From the NCBI GenBank assembly GCA_050692175.1, contig JBOGTG010000148.1, forward strand, positions 322 through 64,321: DNA of 64,000 nucleotides, read 5' to 3'. The notes below the pieces were generated by a model. It was not told the origin of the DNA. It searched no databases and saw only the letters and a program-made list of their open reading frames with translations. The stretch comes from Candidatus Limnocylindria bacterium. Its GTDB lineage: Bacteria; Chloroflexota; Limnocylindria; P2-11E. This document shows positions 31,917 through 63,449 of this stretch, piece by piece; the first letter of the stretch is position 1, and the number at the start of each line of letters is the position of its first letter. Position numbers and translations under genes: made by a program.

Positions 31917-34013
31917 ATGCGACAGGCAAGTCTCGCAACGAAGATCGGCACGACCGCGGACCTGCGACCCGGCACGCCAGACGTGATCGTCGCGAGCGAA
32001 CCCACTCTCGGCGCGACGCTGCGGACGAAGGGGCGGTTCTACTTCCTGTGCGAGGTCGCACGCCAGCACGGGAACGGCGGAAGTGACATCGCGAAGGAGG
32101 TGGCCGACCTCGCTCGTCAGGAGTACTACTACGACCTCTCCGCCGGGATCGAGGTCTCGCTCCGCAAAGCGCTCCGGCAGGCGAATCGCCGCGCCGCGCA
32201 ACGCCTTCGCGATCAGCGCGGGCGGGTCGCTCTCCACTGCGCCTGCGCCGTCGTCGTGAACAACGAGCTCTACGCGGCCCGGATCGGCGCCGCGCAGATC
32301 TTCCTCGTGCGGCGGGCCCGGCTCTTCCTTCCGGGCGACGAACCCGGTGAGCTCGCGGACTTCGTGCATCGGACCACGACGCGCGTGGCCGAATCGCTCG
32401 GCGTTGTCGCGGATGTCCTCCCGGACGTGTGGCGTCAGAGCATCGAGCCCGGCGACACGCTCGTGCTGGCATCCGGCGCGCTCGTCGATGGGCTGGGGGC
32501 TGAGGCCCTGAAGAATGCGGCGATCACGCTTCACCCCCGCGCGGCTGCCGAGCACATCAATAATCGCGCGGTCGCCGACGGTGTCGTCGGCAGCGCGGCC
32601 GCGATCTTCATCGAGCTCTCCGCCGCGACCGCGGCAGCGGGCCGGGTCCTTCCGAAGCCTGAGCCCGTGGAGCCCACCGAGGTGCTGATCGCGGACGGCA
32701 TTCGCTCGCGCTTCGAGTCGATCTGGCGCCGGCGTCCCAGGGTCGCGCAGGCGATCGGGGCCGCGGCCGCGCCCGCGGCGAAGGCGATGGGAAAGACCGT
32801 GGCCATCGGCTTCGAGCTGATGCCGCGGCGAGCGCCTCCGCTCCCGCGCCGGCCGGACACGGCACGCGAGCGCTCGCGCCGCCAACGCCGCGCGGCCTCG
32901 TTGCTCGCGATCCTCCTGCTCCTCGTCGCCGGAGGCATCGGGCTTGTCGCTTATCGGGACTATCAAGCGAACCGCGTCACCGGGGACTACGCCTTAGCCA
33001 TCCTGAGCGTCGAAAGCGACATCTCGGCCGCGCAGCGATTCGCCGACCGCAAGCCGCCTGACAACGAGTCGGCGCGGAAGAAGGTCGACGATGCGCGGGT
33101 CGCCCTCGAGGAGGCCGCGCGGTCTCCAGCGGCCGACCCCGCCCGAATCGCGACGCTCCGCGAGCAGGTCCAGGCACTCGACGACCTGATCACAGGAGTC
33201 GTGGTCGATCTCGCACGCGTGACTGGTCCGGACGGCCGCCCGATCGCCCCGGGGGCGAAACCGACGGGTCTCACGGGCACCGCGAACGGGCTCTACGCGG
33301 CCGACCCGGTGGGCGGCCGCCTCTGGCGCATTTTCGGTGACCCCACGCAGGTCGCAGCCGTCCTCACCCGCGGAGCGCTCGGTGTCGGCGGGCCCCGGAT
33401 GGTCGCCAACCTGAACGAGGTCGTGTATTCGTTCGACGACCAGAAGCACCTGTGGCGGACGGAGGGCACAGGGGTCGCCGACGTAACGCCCGGGGACGCG
33501 TCGACCTGGAAGAGCGTCGACGCGTTCGCCGTCTTTGTTGCCAACCTGTACGTCCTGGACGCCACGAGCGGCCAGGTGTGGAAGCACGAGTCCTTCCCGG
33601 GAACCTCGTTCCTCCGCGCGCAGGGCTACCTTACCGAGCCGATCCCGACGGGTGTCGGCCGGTCGATCGCCGTCGATCAGGACATCTGGATCGTCACGAC
33701 GCAGGGCGACGTCCTCCGCTTCCGCCGCCTCACGACGTCCTTCACCGCCTCGCGTGTCGAGTTCGTCCCACGATGGAACGGAGCGCCGGTGAAGCCGACC
33801 GCGGTGCAGGCCATCGACATCCAGCGCGCCATCTACTTCCTCGATGCGCCGAACGGGATCGTCGTGCAGATGAACCGTGACGGCGGCGAGCTCGCGCGCT
33901 TCGCGCTGCCCTCCAATCTTCCAGGACCCAGCGCGTTCTACGTGTCCGAGGGGTCCCGGACGATCTTCACGATCCACGGATCGAAGGTGGTGGCGACGGA
34001 GCTCCGCGCGTGA
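31917..34013 (+). CDS. membrane protein: N-terminal PP2C-like (apparently inactive) domain, one TM, extracytoplasmic beta-propeller-like domain
   Basis: The first 240 aa or so follow a PP2C/SpoIIE fold pattern (NELYAARIGAAQIFLV, GDTLVLASGAL), but the Asp-rich metal motifs (DGMGG, GDSR) are replaced. A TM helix (LLAILLLLVAGGIGLVAY) follows, then repeated beta-strand-rich segments. Confidence 0.55.
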   Translation: MRQASLATKIGTTADLRPGTPDVIVASEPTLGATLRTKGRFYFLCEVARQHGNGGSDIAKEVADLARQEYYYDLSAGIEVSLRKALRQANRRAAQRLRDQRGRVALHCACAVVVNNELYAARIGAAQIFLVRRARLFLPGDEPGELADFVHRTTTRVAESLGVVADVLPDVWRQSIEPGDTLVLASGALVDGLGAEALKNAAITLHPRAAAEHINNRAVADGVVGSAAAIFIELSAATAAAGRVLPKPEPVEPTEVLIADGIRSRFESIWRRRPRVAQAIGAAAAPAAKAMGKTVAIGFELMPRRAPPLPRRPDTARERSRRQRRAASLLAILLLLVAGGIGLVAYRDYQANRVTGDYALAILSVESDISAAQRFADRKPPDNESARKKVDDARVALEEAARSPAADPARIATLREQVQALDDLITGVVVDLARVTGPDGRPIAPGAKPTGLTGTANGLYAADPVGGRLWRIFGDPTQVAAVLTRGALGVGGPRMVANLNEVVYSFDDQKHLWRTEGTGVADVTPGDASTWKSVDAFAVFVANLYVLDATSGQVWKHESFPGTSFLRAQGYLTEPIPTGVGRSIAVDQDIWIVTTQGDVLRFRRLTTSFTASRVEFVPRWNGAPVKPTAVQAIDIQRAIYFLDAPNGIVVQMNRDGGELARFALPSNLPGPSAFYVSEGSRTIFTIHGSKVVATELRA

Positions 34014-35264: not shown

Positions 35265-36563
35265 GTGATCGAACGCGCGATTTGGCCCCTGCACACGGCC
35301 GTCGGCCGCGACGGACACGTCCGCGTCGGGACGCACGACCTCGCGGGCCTGGCGGATCGCTACGGCACGCCCCTGTACGTGTACGACGCCGAGACGGTCC
35401 GCGCGAGCCTGCGTGAGTACGTCGACGCGTTCTTCCGATACCGGCCGGTGCGCGTCGCCTATTCGGTCAAGGCATGTGCCCTCATCGGCGTCGGCGCGGT
35501 CATCGCGCGCGAGGGGATCGACGCGAGCGTCGCGTCTTTGGGCGAGCTCCAGGCCGCTCGGCGGGCGGGCTTTCCCGCGTCGCGCATGGAGCTGCACGGC
35601 AACGCCAAGCCCGACGACGAGGTCGCCGAGGCACTCAGACTCCATGTCGGGCGCTTCGTCGTGGATGGGGCCCACGACGTCGAGCGGCTCGCTCGGCTCA
35701 CGCACGGCCGGCGCCGCCCGCAGGCGGTGTGGCTGCGCGTCGCGCCGGGGATCAACGTCGACACGCATCCACATCTGGTGACCGGAACGATCGACAGCAA
35801 GTTCGGCGCGCCGATCAGCACGGGCGAGGCACTCGCAGAGGCGCGGGAGATCGCGCGCGCGAAAGGTCTCGCCCTCTTCGGAATCCACGCGCACCTCGGC
35901 GCCCAGATCCGCGACGCGCGTCCCTACGGCGAGCTCGCGCGCGCACTCGTCGCGTTCGCGAACGAGGTGCGCGCCGCGACAGGCGCCCCGATCACCGAGC
36001 TCGGCATGGGCGGTGGGGTCGCCGTGAAGCTCCGCACGACCGAGGAGGCGCCCGAGTTGGACGACTACGCGCGTGCCGTCACGGAGCCGGTCCGAAAGGA
36101 TCGCGCCCTGCGCGGCGCGACGATCTACGTCGAGCCCGGGCGCGGACTCGTGGGCCGCGCGGCGGTCGCGCTGTATCGCGTGGTGGGGACCAAACGCGTC
36201 CCGGAGGTACGGACGTTCGTCGCGGTCGACGGAGGGATGGGCGATAACATCCGCCCGGCGCTCTACGGCGCCGAGTACAGCGCGGTCCTGGCAGCACGGG
36301 CGAACGAGCAGGGGACCGAGGAAGTCACCGTAGCCGGGCGGTACTGCGAGTCGGGGGACGTACTGATCCGATCGGTGCGCTTGCCGACCGCGCACCCAGG
36401 CGACGTTCTCGCCATCCCAGCGGCGGGCGCGTACAGCGTCGCTATGTCGTCGAACTACAACGAGACCCCGCGGCCGGCCGTGGTCCTACTCGATAGCGGC
36501 CGCGCCAGGATCATCCGCGAGCGCGAGAGCCTCGACGACATCTGGCGGCTCGAGCGGCGCTAA
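35265..36563 (+). CDS. lysA: diaminopimelate decarboxylase
   Basis: Fold-III PLP decarboxylase pattern (YSVKAC, GGGVAV-type Gly loop, EPGRGLVG, GRYCESGD, AGAYSVAMSSNYN). Confidence 0.9.
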   Translation: MIERAIWPLHTAVGRDGHVRVGTHDLAGLADRYGTPLYVYDAETVRASLREYVDAFFRYRPVRVAYSVKACALIGVGAVIAREGIDASVASLGELQAARRAGFPASRMELHGNAKPDDEVAEALRLHVGRFVVDGAHDVERLARLTHGRRRPQAVWLRVAPGINVDTHPHLVTGTIDSKFGAPISTGEALAEAREIARAKGLALFGIHAHLGAQIRDARPYGELARALVAFANEVRAATGAPITELGMGGGVAVKLRTTEEAPELDDYARAVTEPVRKDRALRGATIYVEPGRGLVGRAAVALYRVVGTKRVPEVRTFVAVDGGMGDNIRPALYGAEYSAVLAARANEQGTEEVTVAGRYCESGDVLIRSVRLPTAHPGDVLAIPAAGAYSVAMSSNYNETPRPAVVLLDSGRARIIRERESLDDIWRLERR

Positions 36564-37282
36564 CTTCCCGGGCGGAGCCAGAGGCGGGTGCGCAACCGAA
36601 TGAGATCGCGGATCGCGCGGATGATCACGCGCGGCGATGCCCCCTTGGGCTCGTGGGCGGTCCGGGGAAAGTGGCGCACCCCGACCTGGCGCACGCGGAT
36701 GCCCGCGCGGCGGAGCGTGATCAGAAGCTCCGGTGAGAAGAAGGCCCCGTTCGACCGCACGCGCTCCAGCGGCACGCGCGCGAAGACGTCGCGCCGAAAC
36801 AGCTTGAACGCGCAGTCGACGTCGCGCCAGCCGCCGCCGAACAGGAGGCGGATCAGGCGGTTGTACACCCACGCCACGAAGAGGCGCCGGGGCGGATCGG
36901 CGCGCTTGCGCCGGAAGCCGACGACCGCGTCGGCGCCGTCGCTCACAGCAATGAGGAGCGCGAGGTCCTCGAGTGCGAATTGGCGATCGCCGTCGGTGAA
37001 GAAGATCCAGGGCTTCGTGGCGGATTGCAGGCCCGAGCGGACGGCGCCGCCGTAGCCGCGGCGGGTCCCGTGGTGGATCACCCGCACGCGCGGATCTTTC
37101 CTCGAGAGCTCGTCGGCGATCGAGCCGGTGCGGTCGCTGCTCCCGTCGTCCACGACGGTGATCTCGACGTCGTCGGCGAAACGCGGCAGCACGGCGAGCG
37201 CCTCTTCCACGATCGGCGCGACGTTGTCCTCTTCGTTCAGTGCGGGGAAGAAGAAGGAGAGGCCGTCGAGACGAGCGGGCAC
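36560..37282 (-). CDS. GT2 polyprenol-phosphate glycosyltransferase (Dpm1/Ppm1/GtrB-like)
   Basis: LSFFFPALNEEDNV ... VVDDGSSDRT ... FFTDGDRQF (DxD-type), 240 aa with no TM tail. Divergent from the GT-C genes across a 30-nt gap. Confidence 0.85.
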   Translation of the reverse strand: MPARLDGLSFFFPALNEEDNVAPIVEEALAVLPRFADDVEITVVDDGSSDRTGSIADELSRKDPRVRVIHHGTRRGYGGAVRSGLQSATKPWIFFTDGDRQFALEDLALLIAVSDGADAVVGFRRKRADPPRRLFVAWVYNRLIRLLFGGGWRDVDCAFKLFRRDVFARVPLERVRSNGAFFSPELLITLRRAGIRVRQVGVRHFPRTAHEPKGASPRVIIRAIRDLIRLRTRLWLRPGS

Positions 37283-37312
37283 AGGCGGGCAAGGTTAGCG
37301 TGTTCACGTCGC

Positions 37313-38503
37313 ATGACCGTGTCCGACCGAGCAGCCGCGATCTGGATCGGTGTGATCGCGGCCGCGATCTACGCGGCCGCCGGCATCGGACTCTCGACCG
37401 ACTACGACTACTACGGGAGACTGGCGGACGCGTTCCTCCACGGCCGCTGGTGGCTCGACGAGGCCCCCCCGTGGCTCAACGAGCTCCTGCAGTGCGGCGA
37501 CGGGCGTTACTGCGTCGCCTATCCGCCGCTGCCGGCGATTCTGTCGGTTCCGCTCGTGCCGTTCTTCTCGACGGCGGTGGCGCAGGTCGTCGTTTCGCGC
37601 ATAGCGGGCGGCGCGTCGGCCGGCGTCCTCTACTACGCGCTGCGCGCATACGGGGCGCCCCGCACGTACGCGCTGGCGGGCGCACTTCTCTCGGCGTTCG
37701 GAACGACGCTCCTCTTCTCGAGCGTCGACGGCCGCGCGTGGTATGCGGCGCACTCGGTCTCGATGCTCTTTCTCGCCGGAGCCTTCGCGGTGGCGGCGCG
37801 CGGCGGCAGCGCCGTCGCGATCGGCGCGCTCATCGGCCTCGCCGCCCTCGCCCGGCTGCCCGTCGCGCTCGCCGCACCTGCCCTCGCGCTCCTCTGCGCG
37901 CGGCGCGCGGAGATCACTTACACGCGGTCTTTGGGCGGCGTGATCGCAGGCGGCGCGCCGTTCGCCATCGTCTACTTCGGATACAACATGTTGCGCTGGG
38001 GAGTGCCTCTGGACGAGGGATACACGCGGCTCACGCAGGGCGACGTGTTCTTCAACCACGGGCTCTTCTCGCCCATCTATCTGCCCCGCCAGCTCTACGC
38101 GATCTTCGTTCAGCCGCCCGACTTCATCTCGGGGACGCCGTTCTTCCTGCGTCCCCGCTATATCGGCATGAGCCTCTTGCTCACCACGCCTGCGTTCCTC
38201 TGGATCTTCGCCGCTCTGCGCGAGGTCCGTCGCGACGTCGTCGTGGCCGCGACCGGGGTGGCGGCGCTCCTGGCGCTCCTGCCGGATCTCTTCCACGGGA
38301 CCGTGGGCTTCCAGCAGTTTGGCTACCGCTTCAGCATCGACGCGCAGCCGTTTCTCGTCGCGCTCGCGCTCTCGGGTGACGGGCTTTTCCGCGGGGTCTG
38401 GCGCCGCTGGCCGACGATTCTCTTCGCGGTCGCGACCTTCCTTGCGCTCGCCGTCAACATCTACGCAACGATCGCGATCACGCGCTTCGATTACTGGCAA
38501 TGA
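37313..38503 (+). CDS. GT-C-fold integral membrane glycosyltransferase (ArnT/PMT-like)
   Basis: 396 aa from ATG 37313, about 10 to 11 TM segments, and an acidic/aromatic first loop (STDYDYYGRLADAFLHGRWWLDE). The upstream part of the track ORF is antisense to the GT2 gene. Confidence 0.55.
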   Translation: MTVSDRAAAIWIGVIAAAIYAAAGIGLSTDYDYYGRLADAFLHGRWWLDEAPPWLNELLQCGDGRYCVAYPPLPAILSVPLVPFFSTAVAQVVVSRIAGGASAGVLYYALRAYGAPRTYALAGALLSAFGTTLLFSSVDGRAWYAAHSVSMLFLAGAFAVAARGGSAVAIGALIGLAALARLPVALAAPALALLCARRAEITYTRSLGGVIAGGAPFAIVYFGYNMLRWGVPLDEGYTRLTQGDVFFNHGLFSPIYLPRQLYAIFVQPPDFISGTPFFLRPRYIGMSLLLTTPAFLWIFAALREVRRDVVVAATGVAALLALLPDLFHGTVGFQQFGYRFSIDAQPFLVALALSGDGLFRGVWRRWPTILFAVATFLALAVNIYATIAITRFDYWQ

Positions 38504-41500
38504 ACGACGGTCTCGGTCGGAGCGAGCGCCGCGCGCGGCTCGTCGTCGCTGGCGTCGTCGCGCTCGGCGTGATCGTCCGGCTCCTCGCCGTGCGCGCTCA
38601 GGGCTTTCCGACCGACGTCGGCACATTCCAGGCGTGGGCCGAGCGCCTCGCCCGAATCGGCCCGGGCCTCTTCTACGAGCCGGGGTACTTCAGCGATTAC
38701 CCCCCGGCGTTCCTGTACGTGTTGTGGCTTCTCGGCGCCCTCTTCGACGGCGAGTTCCTTCGACTCGCGGTCAAGGCGATCAGCATCCCCGCCGACATCG
38801 CCATCGCGCTTCTTGCCGCAGGGTTGCTGTGGCGCGCGGCTGGGCGCGCGGCCGCGGTTGCCGCCGCCGCGATCTGGTCGCTGCAGCCGGGGGTCATCTT
38901 CGCCGGGCCGTATTGGGGGCAGGTCGATGCGGTCGGGACACTCCCGCTCTTCGGGTCGGTTCTCGCGGCCGGATCGCGGCGCTGGTGGCTCGCCGGTGCG
39001 CTCGCGGCGCTGGCCGCGCTCGTCAAGCCGCAGTTCGGTGTCGGCCTCTTCGTGATCGTCGTTGCGGCGGTGATCGAGTTCGTGCGAGGCGCGCGCCCGC
39101 GTCCGGTCCTCGAGACGCTCGGCGCCGCGGTCGCGACGGCTTACGTCTTGTGCGTTCCGTTCTGGGGACCCGATCCGCTCCGGATCGCGCGCGAGCTCAT
39201 CGGGCTCGTCCAGAGCGCCGCCGGCACCTACAAGTACACCTCGCTGTACGCGTTCAACGGCTGGTCGATCTTCTTCGATTTCTGGAAGCCCGACGACCAG
39301 CTCGTCGGAGCCGGCGCCATCCTGATCGGGGCGGGGTTCCTCGCGGCCGTGGCGCCGCTCTGGTGGCGTCGCGACACCGCTGCCCTGCTCGCCTGCGCCA
39401 CTTTCGCGGCGCTCGCCTTCTACTTCCTGCCGACGCGCGCGCACGAGCGCTATCTCTTCCCCGTGTTCGCGCTCGCGCTTCCGTTCGCCGCCGCGCGGAC
39501 GCGGATCTTCGCCCCGTACCTGACGCTCGCGGTGGCCTTCTTCGTGACGCTCTACTACGCGTTCACGCGCTACCAGCAGCACGTGGATCTGCGCGTACCG
39601 GAAATCCTCGAGGCGACGCTCTTCAGCCGGAGCGGCCAGATCGCCATCGCGGCTGTGATGATCTCCGCGGCCGCGTACCTCTGGTGGCGTCTCGTCCGAG
39701 GCGACGCGCGATTCGAGACCGACACCCCGTGGAGCCTCCCCGCCGTGGCCGTGCCACGTCGGGGCTGGTGGACCCTGCCAGCTGGGCTCGGCCCCGGTCG
39801 CGTGCCCAACCGTCGCGACGTGGCCGTCGCAGCGCTCGTCGCGCTCGCGGTCCTCGGGACGAGAGGCTACCGCCTCGACTGGCCCCGTGACATGTACTTC
39901 GACGAGGTCTACCACGCCCGCACCGCGTTCGAGCTTCTCGCGCAGCGCGATCCGTACGAGTGGACGCACCCGCATCTCGCGAAAGAGATCATGGCGCTCG
40001 GGATCCTCGCCTTCGGCGACGATCGCGTGGTGGGGCACGAGCCGGCTCCCCCGCAGGGGAAACCGACGGCCTTCGTCGTTGCGAACGACGGCACCCGAGT
40101 CTCGGTCGCCGAAGGTTTCCAGGTCGTCGTGCAACCGCGAGGCGGGGCAGCGGCCAGTCGCGCGCTCGGCGTCGATGCGAAGGCGCTCGCGATCCAGGGT
40201 GATCACATCATCGCGATGACGGATCAAGCGCTCGTCGTAATTCCGTTCGCCGAACAGCCGAGCAACACCCAGCTCCAGCAAGTCCGACTGCCGTTCAGTG
40301 GCGCGCGGTCGCTGTCGCTTGCGGGCGACCGCGTGATCGTCGGCGGTCCGAGCTCGCTCGCGATCTACGCGACGCTCGACGCGACCCCCACCGTCATTCC
40401 GATCCCGACGATCGCCGTCACCGCGAAGACGGACGGGAGCGAGGTCTACGTCCTCGACGGGCGGGGGATCGTGCACGTCGTCTCGACGGAGACCGCGCAG
40501 GAGACGCGTGCACTCACCGGGGGCCGGCCCGGTGCGGCCATCGCGTACGCGCTCGGCTCGAATCGCGTCTTCGTTGCGCGCGCCGACGCTCCGATCCTCG
40601 ACGTGTTCGAGCTCGAGTCGGGATCACACGATGCAGTCCCGCTCGCGAACGCGCGCACCGGTACGTTCTCGTCGGGCGCGACAGCGCTCGCGGTCGTGCC
40701 GCGTACGGACTTCCTCTACGCGCTCGATGAGGGCCGCGTCGTCGTGGTCGAGACGCACGGGACGGCGCCGTTCGCGTCGATCCCGGTGGGCGACGGAACG
40801 TTTCTTGGCGTCGACGGAGAGGGCGACAAGCTCGTCGTCGCCGGAGCGAGCGGGGCCGATCTCATCGAGACCGGCCGGCACGCGATCGCGTGGCGCCTGC
40901 CCGGGGTCCTCTTCGCCGCGCTCCTCGCCTTCCTTCTCGTCGTCCTCGCGCGACGCCTCTTCGCGTCGGCCGTCCTGCCCGCACTCGTCGGTCTCGCGGT
41001 GCTCGTCGACGGTTCGATGTTCGCGCAGGCGCGGATCGGCATGAACGACATCTACGTGGCGACGCTCATCGTCGCCGGCTGGTACTTCGTCGTGGCCGCG
41101 CACCAGGGGGCAGGGGCCCCCGGCCGCGCAGCGGACCGCGAAGCGGGGAGGCGATGGGCCCTCGTCGACCTTCTCATCGCGGGCGTGTGCTTCGGGCTCG
41201 CGCTCGCGTCGAAATGGGTCGCGGCGTACGCGCTCGCCGGCGTGTTCGTGGCCACGATCGCAGTTACCGCTCGCTCGTACGAGCGTGGCCACCCCGGCGA
41301 GGGCGGACCGTTGGACCTCTTTGGCGGCCTTCGCAATGAGCCGAGCCCCGCGCCGGATCCGGCGGATCGATTGCCGCTCGCCACGGCCGCGCCCGGTTCT
41401 CTGGCCGCAGCGGTGGCGTTGATCGTGGCCACGCTTCTCGTGATCTCGCGCAATGCGCTTCGGCTTCTCGTCGCCTTCGCGCTCATCCCCGCTGCGATCT

Positions 41501-42264
41501 ACCTCGGGAGCTACCTGCCGTGGTTCGGCGGTTCGACGATCCCATACGGTTGGAGCATCGGCGAGCTCACACAACAGATGTACTGGTACCACTCAAGCCT
41601 CACCGCGCCGCACCCGGCGGGGTCCCCCTGGTGGAGCTGGCCGCTCGTGCTGAAGCCCGTCTACTGGTACTTCGGCGCGTCAACCGGCGGCGACAACGCC
41701 TACATCTACGACGCCGGGAACGTCGTGCTCTACTGGGCGGGCCTTGTCGCGTTCGCGTGGTGCGCGATCGCAGCGGTGCGCGCGCGATCGGTGCCGCTCG
41801 CCTTCGTGGTGTTCGCGGGACTCGTGCAGTACGTCGCGTGGATCCCGATCGGACGGGTGCTTTTCTTCTATCACTTCTTCACCGCGCTGCCGTTCTACCT
41901 GCTCGCCCTCGCGGCGGGGCTCGCGTTCCTCTGGGAGACCGGTCGGGCCCGCCTGGTCGTCGGGTATCTCGCCGCCGCCGCGGCGGCGTTCGTTTACTTC
42001 TATCCGTTCATCTCGGCACAGCCCTTCCCGGGGGCGCAGGCCGGCATGTTCTTCATCCTTCCGACCTGGACCTACGAGTGCCAGTTCTATCCGACGTTCG
42101 TCTGCAATCCGACCATCGGCTCGTCCTTCTCGGTGGTCGCGCTCTTCGGCCGTCTCGCGCTCGTGCTGGGGGTCGCCGCGGGTGTTGCCATCCTCGTCAT
42201 CTGGAGCAGCACCCCGGGATTCTCCCGGCTGCTGGCTACGGTGCGATCGGGTACGCGCCGCTAG
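38500..42264 (+). CDS. 1254-aa fusion: Gpi18/DUF2029-like GT-C module + PMT-type (GT39) protein O-mannosyltransferase module with inserted beta-propeller-like domain
   Basis: The first 450 aa or so are polytopic with FPTDVGTFQAWAERL..YFSDYPPAFLY and HERYLFP. From about aa 464 the PMT hallmarks appear: DMYFDEVYHARTAFELL and THPHLAKEIMALG. About 285 aa of beta-repeat sequence follow (40025..40870), then a PMT TM core and a C-terminal YWYHSSLTAPHPAGSPWWSWP segment. ATGA overlap with the preceding GT-C gene. Confidence 0.75.
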   Translation: MNDGLGRSERRARLVVAGVVALGVIVRLLAVRAQGFPTDVGTFQAWAERLARIGPGLFYEPGYFSDYPPAFLYVLWLLGALFDGEFLRLAVKAISIPADIAIALLAAGLLWRAAGRAAAVAAAAIWSLQPGVIFAGPYWGQVDAVGTLPLFGSVLAAGSRRWWLAGALAALAALVKPQFGVGLFVIVVAAVIEFVRGARPRPVLETLGAAVATAYVLCVPFWGPDPLRIARELIGLVQSAAGTYKYTSLYAFNGWSIFFDFWKPDDQLVGAGAILIGAGFLAAVAPLWWRRDTAALLACATFAALAFYFLPTRAHERYLFPVFALALPFAAARTRIFAPYLTLAVAFFVTLYYAFTRYQQHVDLRVPEILEATLFSRSGQIAIAAVMISAAAYLWWRLVRGDARFETDTPWSLPAVAVPRRGWWTLPAGLGPGRVPNRRDVAVAALVALAVLGTRGYRLDWPRDMYFDEVYHARTAFELLAQRDPYEWTHPHLAKEIMALGILAFGDDRVVGHEPAPPQGKPTAFVVANDGTRVSVAEGFQVVVQPRGGAAASRALGVDAKALAIQGDHIIAMTDQALVVIPFAEQPSNTQLQQVRLPFSGARSLSLAGDRVIVGGPSSLAIYATLDATPTVIPIPTIAVTAKTDGSEVYVLDGRGIVHVVSTETAQETRALTGGRPGAAIAYALGSNRVFVARADAPILDVFELESGSHDAVPLANARTGTFSSGATALAVVPRTDFLYALDEGRVVVVETHGTAPFASIPVGDGTFLGVDGEGDKLVVAGASGADLIETGRHAIAWRLPGVLFAALLAFLLVVLARRLFASAVLPALVGLAVLVDGSMFAQARIGMNDIYVATLIVAGWYFVVAAHQGAGAPGRAADREAGRRWALVDLLIAGVCFGLALASKWVAAYALAGVFVATIAVTARSYERGHPGEGGPLDLFGGLRNEPSPAPDPADRLPLATAAPGSLAAAVALIVATLLVISRNALRLLVAFALIPAAIYLGSYLPWFGGSTIPYGWSIGELTQQMYWYHSSLTAPHPAGSPWWSWPLVLKPVYWYFGASTGGDNAYIYDAGNVVLYWAGLVAFAWCAIAAVRARSVPLAFVVFAGLVQYVAWIPIGRVLFFYHFFTALPFYLLALAAGLAFLWETGRARLVVGYLAAAAAAFVYFYPFISAQPFPGAQAGMFFILPTWTYECQFYPTFVCNPTIGSSFSVVALFGRLALVLGVAAGVAILVIWSSTPGFSRLLATVRSGTRR

Positions 42265-58660: not shown

Positions 58661-59776
58661 CTAGCGCACGCTCCTCTTACGAATGACCTCGGCGTAGAGT
58701 TCAACCAGCTGCGCCGTGACGTGGGACCAGTCGTATTCAGGCGCGCGTCGTGCCCCGGCCTGGCCCAGGCGGTCGCGCAGGGCGGGCTCGCAGAGCAGCC
58801 GTTCAAGCGCGCCCGCGATGGCGTCGGGATCCTTCGGCTCGACGAGGAGCCCGGTGACATTTCGCTGTACGACACGCTTGTACCCGTGGATGTCGCTCGC
58901 CACGACCGGTAACCCCGCCGCCATGGCCTCGAGGAGCACGATTCCGAAAGACTCCTGACCAGTCGACGGCGCGCAGAAGATGTGCGCCGTTCTGTAGAAG
59001 CGCGCCTTATCCACCTCCGAGACCCGGCCGGCGAAGAGCACGTCCTCGAGGCGGTTGTCCCGGACGAAGCGGCGGAGGCGCCCGAGAAGCGGGCCGACGC
59101 TGCAGAGGATGAGCCGGAGCTCGGGGTGCGTCGGCTTCAGCTTCGCATAGGCCTCCGCGAGATACATCGCGCCTTTTCGAGGCTCGAGGCGGCCGACGAA
59201 GAGGATGTTGATCTTGCCGTCCTGGTACTCGGGAAAGGGCTTGGCGCTCGAGTAGAACTGGACGTCGACCCCGTTCGGGATGATCTTGTAGTCGCCCGGG
59301 AAATACGTCGAGATGAAATGGCGTGCTGCGCTCGAGACCGCGATCCGCGCGTCGAGCTTGTTCAGATAGCGATTGCCAATCGGCCGGCCGGCCCAGTAGG
59401 AGAAGGAGAAACCGCCGAAGGCGTGGAACGTCGCCACCTGCGGGCATTTGGCCGAGTCGAGGATCTGCATCGAAAGGAATGGGACGAGCGGCTCGTGGTG
59501 GTGGATGATGTCGAACCGCTCGCGCTCCAGCATCCGTGAGACGAGCCACTCGAGGCGGAGCGACAACGTGATCCGTCCGATCGCGCCGTTGTACGGGACC
59601 GCGATCGCCTGGCCGACCTGGATCACGTCCTGCGCCGGCGGGTCGTCCCCCCACGGTGCCGTGATGATCCGGACGTCGTGTCCCAGACGGCGCAGCTCCG
59701 AGTAGCTCTCGCGGATGTATGAGTTGGCGCCACCCGGTCGCGGGTACGCGTAGGGCGAGACGATCCCGACTTTCAC
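58661..59776 (-). CDS. pimA: GT4 phosphatidylinositol alpha-mannosyltransferase (PimA-like)
   Basis: It resembles mycobacterial PimA along most of its length as I recall that sequence (VKVGIVSPYAYPRPGGANSY, IHHHEP, IPNGVDV, FVGRLEPRKG, ESFGIVLLEAMAAGLPVVASD). GTG 59776 overlaps the PHP gene stop (GTGA). Confidence 0.85.
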   Translation of the reverse strand: MKVGIVSPYAYPRPGGANSYIRESYSELRRLGHDVRIITAPWGDDPPAQDVIQVGQAIAVPYNGAIGRITLSLRLEWLVSRMLERERFDIIHHHEPLVPFLSMQILDSAKCPQVATFHAFGGFSFSYWAGRPIGNRYLNKLDARIAVSSAARHFISTYFPGDYKIIPNGVDVQFYSSAKPFPEYQDGKINILFVGRLEPRKGAMYLAEAYAKLKPTHPELRLILCSVGPLLGRLRRFVRDNRLEDVLFAGRVSEVDKARFYRTAHIFCAPSTGQESFGIVLLEAMAAGLPVVASDIHGYKRVVQRNVTGLLVEPKDPDAIAGALERLLCEPALRDRLGQAGARRAPEYDWSHVTAQLVELYAEVIRKRSVR

Positions 59777-60516
59777 GATTTCTTCCTGCCGCCCCCCGAG
59801 CGAGCCATTCTGCGACCAGCGCGCTTCAGGGGGTCGCGGACCATCGACCGCCACTGCTGCGTGGCGACCCCGTCGAGGTGCTCGCGGAGCGTCCAACCGC
59901 GTCCATCCGCGGTGGTCGCCCGGTCTCGTAGAGCGCCACGGAGCTCCTCCGACGTGCTTCCGGGAAACTCGGTCCAACAGGTCCCGACCAGCGCGGCGTG
60001 GTGCGCGTCGCTCGAGCCGGTCTCTGCGATCCGCAGCACATGTGAGTTGAGCCACGCCGCGCGCGACGCGCGGACGCGTCCGGCGTACGAGGGGTTGCGC
60101 AGCTCGATCGCGTCGACCATCCGGGCGTCGTCTCCATACGCCGCGAGCTGCCGCAGGGCGCCCTCGCCGATGGAGAACGTGAGGTACGAGAGGGGGTGCG
60201 GCACGATCGCCACGCCGCCGGCCTTGTGGATCCGCGTGAGCGCGTCGCTGAGCGAGCAGAACATGGGGACCTCGTCCTCGATCCAGAGTGCGAGAAGGTG
60301 ACCCGATCGTGTCGTGATCTCGACACCCGGAACGACCTCGACCGGGCTCGAACGCCGCGCCGCGAGCTCGCGCAGGGCGAAGGCACCGCGGATGTCGTCG
60401 TGATCGGTGAGCGCGATCACGTCGAGGCTGCCCCGCTCGGCGGAGTCGAGGATCTCCTCGATCGAAGAGAGTCCGTCGCCCAGGTCGCTGTGGAGCTGCA
60501 GATCCGCCTTACCCAT
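59773..60516 (-). CDS. PHP-domain metal-dependent phosphoesterase
   Basis: DLQLHSDLGDG, VIALTDHD, VPHP and SDAHH, the His/Asp motif series of the PHP fold (COG0613-like). Confidence 0.8.
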   Translation of the reverse strand: MGKADLQLHSDLGDGLSSIEEILDSAERGSLDVIALTDHDDIRGAFALRELAARRSSPVEVVPGVEITTRSGHLLALWIEDEVPMFCSLSDALTRIHKAGGVAIVPHPLSYLTFSIGEGALRQLAAYGDDARMVDAIELRNPSYAGRVRASRAAWLNSHVLRIAETGSSDAHHAALVGTCWTEFPGSTSEELRGALRDRATTADGRGWTLREHLDGVATQQWRSMVRDPLKRAGRRMARSGGGRKKS

Positions 60517-60522
60517 GTTTGC

Positions 60523-61377
60523 TCAAGCAGCTCGGCCCGGTGGCTGGCCCCACACCGGCTCGAAGACCGTCCACTGCTCGGGATGCTCCCGGATGTAGCG
60601 CTCGAGGAGCGCGGCGAACTGCCGGACGCCCGCGCGCACGTCGGCTTCGCGGTTACCCGTCGATACGAGCTTCAGCGGCTCTTCCACCCGCGCCACGAGC
60701 GAACCCTTCTCGCGCCACGCGAAGGCCGGAAGGAGGGCGGCTCCGGTGCGCAGCGCCAGGGCGACGTGCGCCGACGGGAGCAGAGCGGACCGTCCGAAAA
60801 ACTCGACCCTCTCGCCGATGCCCGTGACCGCGCGGTCCGCGAGGATGCCGAGCGCACCACCCTCGCGAATCACCCGGTGGATGCCGAGCGCCGAGTCCAT
60901 CGGCACGAGCCGCATCCCCTGGGCCTGCCGCGCCCGGTTCACGGCGTGCATGAGCTCGGAGCTCATCTTCTCAGCCGGAAGCGTGAGGGTGTAGCCGCGC
61001 GCCAGGAGGATCTGCCCGACCAGCGCGACGGGCCCGAGGTGCGCGCTGCCGAAGATCACTCCTTTGCCAAGACCGTGCGCACACAGGAAGTGATCCCAGC
61101 CTTCGACGCGCACGATCGCATCGAAGCGCGCCCGGTCGAGCCTCACGATCTGGAACACCTCGAGGTACTGACGGACCTGATTCACGAACACGCGGCGGGC
61201 GCTCAGAGAGCGTTCTGGCGCGATGATCGCCAGGTTCGCGCGGACGGCGGCACGGCCGCGAGGCGCCGCGAGATAGGCCATCGTGCCGACGGCCTCGGAG
61301 ATCGGCCCCTGCCACCCTGGCGGCACTCTCGGCAGGACCCGCTCCGCCGCGATCGCGAGCGCCCGCGCAGCGCCCAT
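60523..61377 (-). CDS. LpxL/HtrB/PatA-family acyltransferase, paralog B (divergent catalytic motif)
   Basis: Family-wide similarity (VEGWDHF, GKGVIFGSAHLGP, HPEQWTVFEPVW). The HxGNW(D/E) position reads HLGPVA. Confidence 0.75.
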   Translation of the reverse strand: MGAARALAIAAERVLPRVPPGWQGPISEAVGTMAYLAAPRGRAAVRANLAIIAPERSLSARRVFVNQVRQYLEVFQIVRLDRARFDAIVRVEGWDHFLCAHGLGKGVIFGSAHLGPVALVGQILLARGYTLTLPAEKMSSELMHAVNRARQAQGMRLVPMDSALGIHRVIREGGALGILADRAVTGIGERVEFFGRSALLPSAHVALALRTGAALLPAFAWREKGSLVARVEEPLKLVSTGNREADVRAGVRQFAALLERYIREHPEQWTVFEPVWGQPPGRAA

Positions 61378-61380
61378 GCG

Positions 61381-62289
61381 CTAAGCGGTGCCTTCGGGCC
61401 GGGTCCACATGGGACGGAAGATGTACCACTGATCGGGATCGCCGCGGACGAGCTGCTCGAGGTCGTGAACGATGGCCTGCGTCGTGTGCTCGATGTCATG
61501 GGCAGCCTGCTTCGTCCGCTCAACGAAGATCGGCGGCAACGCGACGCCGCGGAACGTGTTGTCGCGCTCGCGGGTCACGGCGGCGACGACGATCGGGGCC
61601 CCCGAGACCCGGGCGAGGTTCGCCGCGATCGTCGGAAAGGCCGTGAGCTCGCCGAAGAACATGACCTCGACGTTATCGAGCTCTTTAGCGCGGGGCCCGA
61701 GATCCATCATGAGTCCGACCATCTCGTTGCGGCGTAGAGCCTGGAGCACCTGACGGACCGCGCCTTCGGGCGGCAGGAGCTTCACGTTCTTGTGCGCGCG
61801 GTTTGCGACGAGCAGATCCATCAGCCGCTGGTTCTCGAGGTCGTCCGCGATCACGTTGAGCGGCATCTCGTCCGCGATGCGGGCTCCGCCGATCTCGAAG
61901 TTGCCGAAGTGCATCGATACGAAGATCAGGCCGCGCCCGTGATCCCGCGCCGCTCGGAAATACGACCACGAGCGCGGATCAACCGAGACGAGCCGCTCGA
62001 AGTCCTCGGCCTTGAGGCTGGGGAACCGCATGATCTCGACGAGGTACTTGGCGAAGTTGCGAAACGAACGCCGCGCCACGCGCGCGACGTCGCGGTGGCC
62101 GCTCGGCAGTGCGAGGACGATCGCGAAGTTCTCCTTGGCGATCCGCCTGCGCGCGCCCCAAACCAGGTACGCGACCTCGCCACCGATCACCGCGGCGGGA
62201 TATGTGATCCACGACGGCAGGCGCTGAGCGAGCGAGGCGCCGGCTCGCCATCCCCAGAACGCGGACCCGTTGAAGATGCGGTCGAGCAC
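61381..62289 (-). CDS. LpxL/HtrB/PatA-family acyltransferase, paralog A (canonical motif)
   Basis: GRGLIFVSMHFGNFEIGG (HxGNxE) and DPDQWYIFRPMW. GTG 62289 lies 2 nt after the ino1 stop. The rest of the 404-aa track ORF overlaps ino1. Confidence 0.75.
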   Translation of the reverse strand: MLDRIFNGSAFWGWRAGASLAQRLPSWITYPAAVIGGEVAYLVWGARRRIAKENFAIVLALPSGHRDVARVARRSFRNFAKYLVEIMRFPSLKAEDFERLVSVDPRSWSYFRAARDHGRGLIFVSMHFGNFEIGGARIADEMPLNVIADDLENQRLMDLLVANRAHKNVKLLPPEGAVRQVLQALRRNEMVGLMMDLGPRAKELDNVEVMFFGELTAFPTIAANLARVSGAPIVVAAVTRERDNTFRGVALPPIFVERTKQAAHDIEHTTQAIVHDLEQLVRGDPDQWYIFRPMWTRPEGTA

Positions 62290-62291
62290 CT

Positions 62292-63437
62292 CTACGCGGC
62301 CCCGCCGAGCGTCTGCTGACCGGAGCGTCCCTTGATGTATTCCTCCACGCCTTCGCGCGCCCTGTCGTCGGGGATCTGGCGCGGCGGCGACTTCATGAAG
62401 TACGCCGACGGCGCCACGATCGTGCCCCCGAGGCCTCGATCGAGCGCGAGCTTGCAGCAGCGTATTGCGTCGATGACCACGCCGGCGCTGTTCGGCGAAT
62501 CCCAGACCTCGAGCTTGACCTCCGCGTTGAGCGGGACGTCGCCAAACGTGGTCCCCTCCATGCGGATGTAGCACCACTTGCGGTCGAGGAGCCACGGAAC
62601 GTAATCGGAAGGTCCGACGTGGACATCCTTCTCGTCCAGCGGGTAGTCCAGCATGCTCGTCACCGCATTGGTCTTGCTGATCTTTTTCGACTCCAGGCGC
62701 TCGCGCTCGAGCATGTTGAGGAAGTCGGTGTTGCCGCCGAAGTTGAGCTGATACGTTCGATCGAGGCGCACGCCGCGATCCATGAAGAGCCGCGTGAGCA
62801 CGCGATGCGTGATCGTGGCCCCGACCTGCGACTTGATGTCATCGCCGATGATCGGCAGGTTCTTCTGGGCGAAGCGTTTCTGCCAGTACGGTTCCCGCGC
62901 GATGAACACCGGGATGCAGTTGATGAACGCACAGCCCGCCTCGAGCGTCTGCTCGACGTACCACTTCGTCGCCTCTTCGCTTCCCACGGGCAGGTAGCTG
63001 ACGACGACGTCGACCTCCCGATCGCGGAGTATCCCGACGATGTCGTCGGTGGCGCCGGGTGCCTTCTTCACGATCTCCGAGAGGTACTTGCCGATCCCGT
63101 CGTGGGTCATGCCTCGCGAGACCTTGACCCCGGTGCGCGGGACGTCCGCGAAGCGATAGGTGTTGTTCGGCGCCTGATAGATCGCGTCGGCGAGGTCTTT
63201 GCCGACCTTGTTCCGGTCCACGTCGATCGCGGCGACGATGTCCACGTCGCGGATGTGATAGCCACCGAGGTCGACGTGCATGATCCCGGGGATCCGGTCG
63301 CCCGGCTTGGCGTTGCGGTAGTAGTGAATGCCTTGCACGAGCGAGCTCGCGCAGTTGCCGACGCCGATGATCGCGACGCGGATCCTCTTGTTGCGTCGCG
63401 CCGAGGAGGGTTTCTTTCTCTTCTTCGTGGTCGCCAT
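62292..63437 (-). CDS. ino1: myo-inositol-1-phosphate synthase
   Basis: [20 protein letters not shown] (NAD site) and [14 protein letters not shown]. About 380 aa, the short bacterial/archaeal form. Confidence 0.92.
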
Positions 63438-63449
63438 GTTTTCGGATCT

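Follow-up and report, generated by a model that had tools for sequence, protein, structure and literature searches.

Gene content of the locus

The DNA analysed here (the window, 64,000 nt in full) comes from an uncultured soil Chloroflexota bacterium of the class Limnocylindria. We found the three open reading frames under study where a preliminary description had placed them. The first, which we call GT2, encodes a GT2 glycosyltransferase of 240 amino acids on the minus strand (36560–37282) and begins with GTG. Divergent from it, on the plus strand, are gene 2 (37313–38503; 396 amino acids, ATG start), encoding a compact Pfam-orphan membrane glycosyltransferase of GT-C fold, and gene 3 (38500–42264; 1254 amino acids). 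The start codons of GT2 and gene 2 are exactly 30 nt apart, and genes 2 and 3 share 4 nt (ATGA), in agreement with the 30-nt gap and overlapping GT-C genes described before.

Two GT-C genes had been counted at this locus. Both membrane proteins indeed belong to the GT-C class, gene 2 by its fold (the top 32 PDB matches) and gene 3 by Pfam. However, the locus contains three GT-C modules rather than two, one in gene 2 and two in gene 3, because gene 3 joins two such modules to a beta-propeller. The combination of GT87-like, GT39 and beta-propeller parts in gene 3 was absent from the preliminary description.

The divergent intergenic region (37283–37312) contains a core, CAAGGTTAGCGTGTT, at 37290–37304. 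In 23 related genomes, the gap likewise measures exactly 30 nt. Its core persists as AAGGTTAGCGTGTT, or as AACGCTAGCGTT in a group of more distant relatives, whereas the bases on either side differ. Neither the GT2 nor the gene 2 start codon is accompanied by a Shine-Dalgarno motif, and a scan for the sigma-70 consensus gave no match. The core probably represents either back-to-back -10-like elements for near-leaderless transcripts, in which case TAGCGT (plus strand) and TAACCT (minus strand) would be the candidate elements, or an operator.

GT2 resembles polyprenyl-phosphate glycosyltransferases

GT2 carries a GT2 domain of GT-A fold (PF00535, E 2e-28, residues 9–168). Its best relative in the PDB is ArnC (E 1e-13; residues 8–233 of 240 against 10–230), and the dolichyl-phosphate-mannose (DPM) synthase of P. 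furiosus is a further one (E 4e-8). The similarity to ArnC is not confined to the GT-A core but includes the membrane-interface region. In the alignment, the GT2 sequence TDGDRQF, which bears the DxDxQ motif, stands opposite LDADLQN of ArnC and MDADLQH of the P. furiosus enzyme; likewise, VVDDGSSDRT stands opposite LIDDGSSDNS and VVDDDSPDRT, respectively. The earlier designation of this protein as Dpm1/Ppm1-like is borne out by the length of the ArnC alignment and by the match of DGDRQ to the DADLQ of both enzymes. As judged from its sequence, GT2 is a polyprenyl-phosphate glycosyltransferase of the ArnC/DPMS/GtrB/Ppm1 branch.

We found no transmembrane (TM) helix or hydrophobic segment across the 240 residues of GT2, C-terminal helices of the ArnC, GtrB and archaeal DPMS type included. 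Such C-terminal TM helices are likewise not known from the soluble Ppm1 catalytic domain or the DPM1 subtype. Among the NCBIfam equivalog models, none came near its cut-off: ArnC gave 53 bits against 529, the haloarchaeal dolichyl-phosphate hexose transferase 51.5 bits against 375, and the sub-threshold scores for PgfS and AglJ were similar. Because ArnC and the hexose transferases match about equally well, NCBIfam leaves the sugar unfixed. We regard GT2 as a candidate polyprenyl-phosphate-sugar synthase whose sugar is probably mannose.

Gene 2 encodes a predicted GT-C protein outside annotated families

The gene 2 protein matched no Pfam or NCBIfam family, and a profile search gave no match in the PDB. 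Its GT-C nature was therefore established through structure. The AlphaFold2 (AF2) model has a pLDDT of 96.7 and a pTM of 0.95. When this model was compared with the PDB by Foldseek, ranks 1–32 were all GT-C proteins (query TM-score 0.31–0.54), among them ALG12, AglB/PglB, Pmt4, AftB, ArnT, ALG9 and PimE; the Foldseek probability exceeded 0.9 in most of these ranks and was at most 0.10 in every later match. Since all solved structures that match the model are GT-C enzymes, the predicted fold places gene 2 in an unannotated GT-C family. This family comprises 1494 clusters at 50% identity; matches to PMT_2 are limited to 7 of 70 homologs and matches to GT87 to 3 of 70. Position 57 in the first outer loop (E57 in gene 2) is Glu or Asp in all 70 homologs, and R181, R228, R339 and D343 are about invariant among them.

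Gene 3 joins GT87-like and GT39/PMT modules with a beta-propeller

The N-terminal module of gene 3 (38500–39789; amino acids 1–430) is a GT-C module of the PimE/Gpi18-like type. Against the Pfam GT87 model (PF09594, cut-off 25), it scored 21.2 bits in the whole protein, 24.4 bits as an isolated module and 26.6 bits in a genome search; PF09594 is precomputed on most orthologs, which IMG names 'Gpi18-like mannosyltransferase'. Residues D39, K176 and H315 are invariant across 64 orthologs. In PimE, the first juxtamembrane helix bears the catalytic Asp (D58) at its tip, and K195 and H322 hold the phosphate (PMC12041525). The 137 residues that separate D39 from K176 equal the D58–K195 spacing of PimE, an equivalence by spacing and not by alignment. 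A profile search with the module gave no PDB match and did not reach PimE, and a MAFFT alignment with paralogs was unreliable. From the family scores, which fall on both sides of the cut-off, and the annotation of its orthologs, we regard the module as GT87-like.

The GT39/PMT module begins at 39790–40014 (amino acids 431–505), a segment with TM1, a loop-1 helix and an HPHLAKE helix, and continues at 40876–42264 (amino acids 793–1254), which includes the PMT_4TMC region. Two Pfam families exceeded their cut-offs: PF02366 (PMT; amino acids 793–921; 40.7 bits, cut-off 22.7) and PF16192 (PMT_4TMC; amino acids 1022–1190; 45.9 bits, cut-off 32.4). The bacterial Pmt equivalog model NF058602 gave 30.4 bits and did not reach its cut-off of 800. 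The loop-1 Asp-Glu (DE) motif is D468/E469 (39901–39906), where YFDEVYHA of gene 3 aligns with VFDEVHFG of the fungal Pmt4 structures; the rest of the module can be aligned with its counterpart in Pmt4 of Chaetomium and yeast. D468, E469, H472 and T489-H490-P491 are invariant in the 64 orthologs. Helix 493–505 of the AF2 model has 13 residues, too short for a membrane span. Together, the PMT and PMT_4TMC matches and the invariant Asp-Glu motif confirm that one of the GT-C proteins bears the PMT hallmarks previously ascribed to it.

Gene 3 has no Pfam match to a MIR domain, which eukaryotic PMTs carry in loop 5; loop 1 instead holds the propeller. Actinobacterial Pmt proteins, too, are without sizeable periplasmic domains of the MIR kind (10.64898/2026.07.15.738315). 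The propeller (40024–40869; amino acids 509–790) is an insert in extracytoplasmic loop 1, about 40 residues past the DE motif. Its AF2 model shows ~28 strands with a pLDDT of mostly 85–97, and Foldseek matched it best to seven-bladed WD40/YVTN propellers over ~305 aligned columns, with target TM-scores of ~0.65–0.78 against single-domain propeller chains. The insert was found in 56 of 56 related genomes. Because it lies between TM1 (438–456) and TM2 (800–820), whose cytoplasmic flanks are Arg-rich, the topology places the propeller on the outside. From these results, we conclude that gene 3 consists of a GT87-like module, a GT39/PMT module and a seven-bladed propeller within the PMT catalytic loop.

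The three genes stay together across Limnocylindria

All 41 Limnocylindria genomes searched share the architecture of gene 3. Among 121 Chloroflexota genomes, 108 of them outside the class, the Limnocylindria form of the fusion occurred only within it, and in a pattern scan of one genome per species (185,579 species), the 77 distinct loci retained as the best of 214 confirmed matches are all on Chloroflexota-type contigs. In the 56 species-level genomes with enough flanking sequence, gene 2 is without exception the immediate upstream neighbour of gene 3, and 53 of them have a small GT2 within 4 kb. In each of the five families sampled (f1–f5), GT2 adjoins the fusion gene, and it keeps its company despite inversions and insertions; in seven genomes, a paralogous GT2, 33% identical, occupies the slot of the ortholog. 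In family f3, the cluster gains a GT-C gene of the TMEM260-like O-mannosyltransferase family.

Equivalent parts also occur as separate, adjacent genes on a contig attributed to Thermodesulfobacteriota (L043). There, a single-strand run encodes an FG-GAP propeller, a GT2, a stand-alone N-module homolog (443 amino acids), a stand-alone PMT protein and a GtrA-family protein, and is flanked by three gene 2 homologs. The L043 cluster holds two different GT2s; the GT2 of the run is 40.5% identical to that of Limnocylindria and overlaps the N-module homolog. No further neighbours are shared with the Limnocylindria locus. The adjacency in five families, the invariable order of genes 2 and 3, the replacement of GT2 and the gene set of L043 indicate that the linkage of the three genes is more than chance. 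The functional link between donor synthase and transferases that had been suggested is thus supported by conservation throughout the class, by non-orthologous replacement of GT2 and by the unfused set.

Genome context

The preliminary description called the locus a self-sufficient set. It does bring together a donor synthase and transferases, but 'self-sufficient' is an overstatement, since there is no flippase within the three-gene cluster; nucleotide-sugar supply is likewise encoded elsewhere. We found no flippase of the GtrA family or the ArnE/F type in the genome, which is 87% complete. The genome contains at least 12 GT-C genes and several small GT2 paralogs. Within the window, a phosphatidylinositol-mannoside (PIM)-type operon (58661–64000) lies 16 kb from the cluster and is not contiguous with it; it encodes a CDP-alcohol phosphatidyltransferase, Ino1, two PatA-like acyltransferases, a PHP protein and a GT4 glycosyltransferase. 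The GT4 gene suggests that this organism makes GDP-mannose-dependent glycolipids. The number of GT-C genes, the small GT2 paralogs and the proximity of the PIM-type operon make glycolipid acceptors plausible.

Proposed function and alternative explanations

We propose, with moderate confidence, that the three genes form one polyprenyl-phosphate-mannose-dependent module for protein O-glycosylation (O-mannosylation). We infer that the sugar is mannose, that the acceptor is protein and how the three GT-C modules share the work. The peripheral GT2 would make polyprenyl-phosphate-mannose at the cytoplasmic face, and a flippase encoded outside the cluster would carry this donor across the membrane. 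Through its Asp-Glu loop, the GT39/PMT module of gene 3 would then place the first mannose on Ser/Thr of exported proteins, with the seven-bladed propeller in the catalytic loop probably selecting or gating the acceptor. The glycan could be extended by the fused GT87-like module, by the gene 2 GT-C enzyme or by both; alternatively, the GT87-like module may be a non-catalytic partner.

The module could instead act on an envelope glycolipid or polymer, such as a phosphatidylinositol mannoside or a lipomannan-like lipoglycan. In that case, the roles of the GT87-like module and gene 2 would be like those of PimE or the Mpt enzymes, and the PMT-like module would use a non-protein acceptor. Consistent with this possibility, PimE, the archetype of GT87, has PIM4 as its substrate (PMC12041525), a PIM-type operon lies in the same window, and the 12 or more GT-C genes are as expected of elaborate envelope glycan synthesis. 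However, both the DE motif and PMT_4TMC are intact in gene 3; the propeller next to the catalytic loop has a parallel in the protein-selecting MIR domain, or propeller cap, reported for PMT complexes (10.64898/2026.07.15.738315); the cluster and the operon are not contiguous here; and family f3 has recruited a gene of a protein O-mannosyltransferase family. To our knowledge, characterised GT39 enzymes all glycosylate protein, and we consider a glycolipid or polymer acceptor unlikely. A different departure from our proposal would leave the logic of the lipid-linked donor unchanged and replace mannose with glucose, GlcNAc or an aminoarabinose-type sugar, on the model of the GtrB/GtrA, CsbB/YfhO or ArnC/ArnT systems. 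That ArnC, not DPM synthase, is the closest solved relative of GT2 argues in this direction, as do the similar sub-threshold scores for ArnC, the haloarchaeal hexose transferase, PgfS and AglJ, and the GtrA-family gene and two different GT2s of the unfused cluster. The GDP-mannose-dependent glycolipids suggested by the GT4 gene of the nearby PIM-type operon argue for mannose, and the characterised GT39 and GT87 enzymes known to us use polyprenyl- or dolichyl-phosphate-mannose; we judge another sugar to be distinctly improbable.

It might also be asked whether the adjacency is inherited synteny with no functional link, such that GT2 serves another pathway within a conserved BFN–GT2 block. The genes for rhomboid, the BFN nuclease, LysA, PP2C, PknB and OpcA are also syntenic in families f1 and f2, and BFN lies beside GT2 throughout the class. 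Yet GT2 and the fusion remain together through inversions and insertions, a paralogous GT2 takes the identical slot in seven genomes, the divergent control region is conserved, and on L043, where no other neighbours are shared, the GT2 homolog overlaps the N-module homolog. Against this evidence, synteny by itself is a very improbable explanation.

Relation to known systems

The proposed pathway resembles that of actinobacteria, in which Ppm1 acts before PMT and GT87 elongation follows (PMC12757957). Three enzyme classes are common to the two, namely Ppm1 (GT2), Pmt (GT39, Rv1002c) and GT87 (PimE), and so is the underlying scheme: a small GT2 donor synthase inside, a GT39 enzyme with a DE motif for the start outside and a GT87-type GT-C enzyme for extension. 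The Limnocylindria genes are clustered, whereas mycobacterial Pmt, its partners and PimE are at widely separated locus numbers (10.64898/2026.07.15.738315). In addition, GT87-like and GT39 modules form one polypeptide in Limnocylindria, an additional orphan GT-C gene (gene 2) is coupled to its gene in translation, and the host is a Chloroflexota bacterium.

The small ArnC/GtrB-like GT2 paired genomically with a GT-C transferase also recalls the ArnC/ArnT and GtrA/GtrB/Gtr* systems. In contrast to ArnC and GtrB, the Limnocylindria GT2 lacks C-terminal TM helices, and no flippase of the GtrA or ArnE/F type accompanies it in the 87%-complete genome; its GT-C partners are GT39, GT87-like and orphan rather than of GT83 or Gtr types.

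The closest parallel to gene 3 comes from a 2026 preprint on mycobacteria, in which Pmt, a GT87-like protein and a periplasmic propeller are reported as a complex (bioRxiv 10.64898/2026.07.15.738315). The proposed Pmt holo-complex contains Pmt, Rv0051 (GT87-like), Rv3212 (a periplasmic eight-bladed propeller) and Rv1209 (DivIVA-like). Gene 3 has the same kinds of part, a GT39 module, a GT87-like GT-C module and an extracytoplasmic beta-propeller connected with the catalytic loop, with the GT39 and GT87-like pair within a single chain of 1254 amino acids. The two systems differ in the propeller, which has seven blades and lies within loop 1 in Limnocylindria, whereas the mycobacterial one is an eight-bladed protein of its own. 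They also differ in the GT87-like part, which retains invariant Asp, Lys and His residues in Limnocylindria; the preprint describes the mycobacterial partner as catalytically inactive. The preprint also cites translational GT87–GT39 fusions in Paenibacillus (UniProt V9WAU2), where, as in gene 3, a GT87-family module is joined to a GT39 module in one protein. Gene 3 unites in one chain three kinds of large part that have recently been proposed as separate subunits of a mycobacterial complex for protein O-mannosylation.

Organization of the locus and its divergent spacer

The preliminary description had placed a GT2 gene divergent from two overlapping genes across a 30-nt gap, and all three open reading frames were found in that arrangement: GT2, the candidate polyprenyl-phosphate-sugar synthase gene, on the minus strand (36560-37282; 240 aa, GTG start), and, on the plus strand, gene 2 (37313-38503; 396 aa, ATG start) and gene 3 (38500-42264; 1254 aa). 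The divergent start codons of GT2 and gene 2 are exactly 30 nt apart, and genes 2 and 3 overlap by ATGA. The window has a G+C content of about 67%, and the names of near-identical proteins assign it to Candidatus Limnocylindria; the source genome assembly comprises 2.7 Mb and is 87% complete. The neighbors are of the housekeeping kind. Upstream are a RecF/SMC-type ATPase gene, a 698-aa ORF (31917-34013) with no match in Pfam, and genes for a rhomboid, a BFN nuclease and LysA; the ORF shares 4 nt (34010-34013) with the beginning of the rhomboid protease gene. Downstream, genes for PP2C, a PASTA Ser/Thr kinase, OpcA and 6-phosphogluconate dehydrogenase occupy the other strand. The PP2C phosphatase ORF (stop at 42236-42238) converges on gene 3 (stop ending at 42264), their 3' ends having 29 nt in common, and the PASTA kinase gene comes after the PP2C ORF on the same strand.

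The 30-nt spacer (37283-37312) contains a conserved core, AAGGTTAGCGTGTT, whose distance to each of the two start codons is constant across 23 genomes, with variable flanking bases. In the window this core, CAAGGTTAGCGTGTT, includes TAGCGT, 11 nt ahead of the start codon of gene 2, and, read on the opposite strand, TAACCT, 9 nt ahead of that of GT2. In a set of more distantly related genomes, a perfect palindrome, AACGCTAGCGTT, stands in place of the core. Neither gene has a Shine-Dalgarno motif within the spacer, and a scan of 36400-38000 for sigma-70 promoters and terminators found none. The sequence of the spacer suggests leaderless back-to-back promoters or an operator.

GT2 resembles polyprenyl-phosphate-sugar synthases

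GT2 matches PF00535 in Pfam (E 2e-28), and its nearest solved structure is ArnC (E 1e-13; residues 8-233 aligned to 10-230 of ArnC), followed by the Pyrococcus DPM synthase. Its VVDDGSSDRT and TDGDRQF segments line up with the DDGSSD and DADLQ motifs of those two enzymes. This alignment and the common motifs bear out, at the level of sequence, the proposal that GT2 is a Dpm1/Ppm1-like enzyme. The NCBIfam matches are exclusively to polyprenyl- or dolichyl-phosphate sugar transferases or other GT2s; because every one falls far below its equivalog cut-off, the sugar cannot be read from the sequence. A scan of all 240 aa found no hydrophobic segment, and GT2 is therefore predicted to be a peripheral enzyme.

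Gene 3 combines two putative GT-C modules with a predicted propeller

One of the two overlapping genes had been credited with hallmarks of protein O-mannosyltransferases (PMT), and gene 3 indeed carries PMT and PMT_4TMC domains and the DE motif (D468/E469). In Pfam, the PMT match covers aa 793-921 and the PMT_4TMC match aa 1022-1190; a GT87 match of borderline score covers aa 67-305. The PMT loop-1 region (aa 439-500, including YFDEVYHA) aligned with fungal Pmt4 structures, and approximately 290 residues intervene between it and the remaining PMT module. An AlphaFold2 model of residues 1-1200 (mean pLDDT 82, pTM 0.76) predicts a helical N-module (aa 5-402), then a linker, the first transmembrane helix of the PMT module (TM1, aa 438-456), short loop-1 helices at aa 463-480 (carrying D468/E469) and aa 493-505, a region of about 28 strands (aa 509-790) and a further transmembrane helix (TM2, aa 800-820).

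In Foldseek, the strand region matched seven-bladed WD40/YVTN propellers (target TM-score approximately 0.65-0.78 for single-domain propeller chains, over some 305 columns). When the whole gene 3 model was submitted, WD40 propellers filled the output and neither GT-C module obtained a fold match; the putative assignment of both modules to GT-C comes from Pfam. The isolated insert gave a sole, sub-threshold Pfam match, to Beta_propel (E 0.12). Because the helix at aa 493-505 is too short to span the membrane and the TM1 and TM2 flanks are Arg-rich, the topology of the model would place the propeller within the extracytoplasmic catalytic loop of the PMT module.

Across 64 orthologs, the DE motif, a THP motif and the N-module residues D39, K176 and H315 are invariant. 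D39 and K176 are 137 residues apart, the same spacing as in PimE, the archetypal GT87 enzyme, between D58, which is catalytic, and K195, which binds phosphate (PMC12041525). This equivalence in spacing suggests that the N-module may be catalytically active; a profile of the N-module found nothing in the PDB. An assembly or frameshift artifact was ruled out for gene 3 by more than 100 orthologs of about 1200 aa with the same architecture. A 68%-identical copy of residues 2-182 lies at a contig end of the same genome (C20:2-550, minus strand), and could belong to a further fusion gene or come from a variant strain binned with this genome. Some relatives, such as genome G036, have two fusion genes.

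Gene 2 represents an orphan GT-C family

Gene 2 is called hypothetical by nearly all sources. It had no match in Pfam or NCBIfam, and both single-sequence and profile searches of the PDB gave only noise (bestrophin, E 0.005; haemoglobin). An exhaustive search placed it in a family of 1494 clusters at 50% identity; among 70 diverse homologs, 7 touched PMT_2 and 3 touched GT87. An AlphaFold2 model built with a homolog alignment reached a pLDDT of 96.7 and a pTM of 0.95. When this model was compared with the PDB by Foldseek, ranks 1-32 were all GT-C proteins (query TM-score 0.31-0.54), including ALG12, AglB/PglB/STT3, Pmt4, AftB, ArnT, ALG9, PimE, ALG3, EmbB, AftD, DPY19 and PIG-U, and beyond rank 32 the probability fell to 0.10 or less. 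All 70 homologs have an acidic residue (Glu or Asp) at position 57, which lies in the first outer loop, and R181, R228, R339 and D343 are near-invariant. From the uniform top 32 matches, the acidic position 57 and the near-invariant Arg and Asp residues, we conclude that gene 2 is, as modeled, a GT-C enzyme of a sequence family undescribed so far. Its earlier designation as GT-C is thus supported by the predicted fold and not by Pfam or NCBIfam. An hhalign comparison of the gene 3 N-module with the gene 2 family gave a probability of only 27%.

Members of the family also occur on three archaeal-looking contigs (L044, L045 and L124), beside genes for ribosomal L39e/S19e, eIF-6 and Nre, so the family appears to span both domains. 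Neither a GT2 nor other GT-C genes were found near these three homologs, and these settings are uninformative as to function.

Conservation of the cluster

Five Limnocylindria families (f1-f5) were sampled. The entire region is syntenic in f1 and f2, which share the layout of the window; taken alone, this synteny proves little. A GT2 ortholog (47-68% identity) adjoins the fusion gene in all five families. The ortholog and the fusion gene diverge directly in f4 and f5, with no gene 2 between them, and in f3 a TMEM260-like GT-C (PF11028, E 1e-23) and a gene 2 paralog stand between the two. The f3 TMEM260-like (DUF2723) gene belongs to a Pfam family that takes its name from a protein O-mannosyltransferase, and is found between GT2 and the gene 2 paralog at L036:14783-16630, L038:4891-6669 and L039:12965-14542; the f3 fusion genes have a larger loop-1 insert, and their open frames run to 1800-2300 aa.

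Among the 56 species-level genomes with enough flanking sequence, gene 2 lies directly upstream of gene 3 and the propeller is present in every one, and a small GT2 is found within 4 kb in 53. In 7 of the 56, a 33%-identical, co-directional paralog replaces GT2 in the same slot; two other genomes carry duplications. Outside the class, a search of 108 Chloroflexota genomes gave only stand-alone PMT-like or N-module-like genes. Limnocylindria-type loci (57-77% best-segment protein identity) occur on contigs L047, L048, L062 and L102, labelled Bathyarchaeia, Udaeobacter, Saccharimonadales or Acidiferrales; these records are probably mislabelled bins.

An unfused counterpart occurs on L043, a 77.8-kb contig from Logan SRR26209086, whose gene 2 homolog bears the NCBI name of a Deltaproteobacteria MAG and has close relatives labelled Thermodesulfobacteriota. 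A single strand encodes an FG-GAP propeller protein, a GT2 with 40.5% identity to that of the window, a stand-alone N-module homolog (443 aa, profile E 6e-37), a stand-alone PMT with PMT_4TMC (436 aa) and a GtrA-family protein. The genes flanking the set comprise three of the gene 2 family, tandem or nearby (profile E 1e-144 to 1e-152), a further GT-C and a further GT2.

The source genome itself contains at least 12 GT-C genes, of PMT_2, GT87 and PIG-V types, with such genes at C45:35213-41038, C104:12181-22145 and C129:3629-10370; on C45, two genes of the GT87 type, one PIG-V-like GT-C and a 242-aa GT2 lie within 6 kb. Because small GT2 paralogs, which share 31-37% identity with the GT2 of the window and measure 226-242 aa in the two cases with defined ORFs, adjoin several GT-C genes, a small GT2 plus GT-C is a recurrent cluster type in this genome.

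Discussion

Our results uphold, with refinements, the first reading of this locus as a lipid-linked-sugar glycosylation cluster, and we consider it highly probable that the three genes constitute one polyprenyl-phosphate-sugar glycosylation module. Adjacency could instead reflect mere synteny, but this is unlikely: the functional donor-plus-transferase link is backed by the class-wide adjacency of GT2 and the fusion gene, the order of gene 2 and gene 3 in all 56 species-level genomes, the paralog replacement, the conserved spacer, the unfused L043 cluster and the restricted distribution of the fusion.

What the module glycosylates is less certain. The actinobacterial route from Ppm1 through PMT to GT87 (PMC12757957) and the known enzymes of families GT39 and GT87 point to mannose and a protein acceptor, and on these grounds we favor, with some reserve, protein O-mannosylation. 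A glycolipid or lipoglycan acceptor is also plausible, given the abundance of GT-C genes, the several further clusters of small GT2 and GT-C genes, and a PIM-type operon 16 kb downstream (58661-64000, minus strand) that encodes a CDP-alcohol phosphatidyltransferase, inositol-1-phosphate synthase, two lipid-A-type (PatA-like) acyltransferases, a PHP phosphoesterase and a GT4 glycosyltransferase. The sugar, too, could be other than mannose, as the kinship of GT2 to ArnC and its sub-equivalog NCBIfam scores would allow.

In the mechanism that we propose, GT2 would make polyprenyl-phosphate-sugar inside the cell and a flippase would carry it across the membrane; no GtrA-family gene was found in the 2.7-Mb, 87%-complete genome. 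The GT39 module would then hand the sugar to an outside acceptor, which the loop-1 propeller would be positioned to select, and the GT87-like module and gene 2 would extend the glycan, or the GT87-like module may be a scaffold. We offer only tentatively a fuller version: an O-glycan assembly line of three active sites, in which GT39 starts the chain under an acceptor-selecting propeller and elongation falls to gene 2 and a GT87-like module that is still catalytic. Gene 2 would then be the founding member of a new bacterial and archaeal GT-C family, and the Limnocylindria fusion and the unfused L043 cluster, taken together, would mark the combination of GT2, GT39, GT87-like module and propeller as an old bacterial protein-glycosylation unit reaching well beyond Actinomycetota.

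Bacterial protein O-mannosylation has been characterized mainly in Actinomycetota, and only recently was its machinery proposed to be a multi-subunit complex. A 2026 preprint (10.64898/2026.07.15.738315) reports that three proteins co-purify with mycobacterial Pmt, one GT87-like, one a periplasmic propeller of eight blades and one DivIVA-like; in Limnocylindria, all three large kinds of part reside in the single gene 3 chain. Some of this is already known: gene 3 orthologs carry the database name 'phospholipid carrier-dependent glycosyltransferase', and the same preprint noted GT87-GT39 fusions in Paenibacillus (10.64898/2026.07.15.738315). The enzyme classes and logic are the same as in actinobacterial O-mannosylation. 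In contrast to that system, however, the Limnocylindria locus clusters the donor synthase with the transferases, joins GT87-like module, GT39 and propeller in one chain with the propeller inside loop 1, retains apparently intact catalytic residues in the GT87-like module and adds a coupled orphan GT-C, gene 2.

The locus thus provides independent gene-fusion and gene-neighborhood evidence, from a different phylum, that GT39, its GT87-like partner and a propeller cooperate, with the donor synthase next door under a common conserved 30-nt control region. A natural single-chain enzyme would be an easier structural and biochemical object than a four-protein complex, and L043 a useful comparison system for the fused cluster. 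Gene 2 adds a sizeable GT-C family (approximately 1500 clusters at 50% identity) without a Pfam model, tied genomically to this pathway in two phyla.

Limnocylindria are an uncultured class of soil Chloroflexota, abundant in soils and lakes, and we know of no direct study of their envelope. Because the 2.7-Mb genome has a PIM-type operon in addition to at least 12 GT-C genes, our analysis suggests that these bacteria have an actinobacteria-like, glycan-rich envelope.
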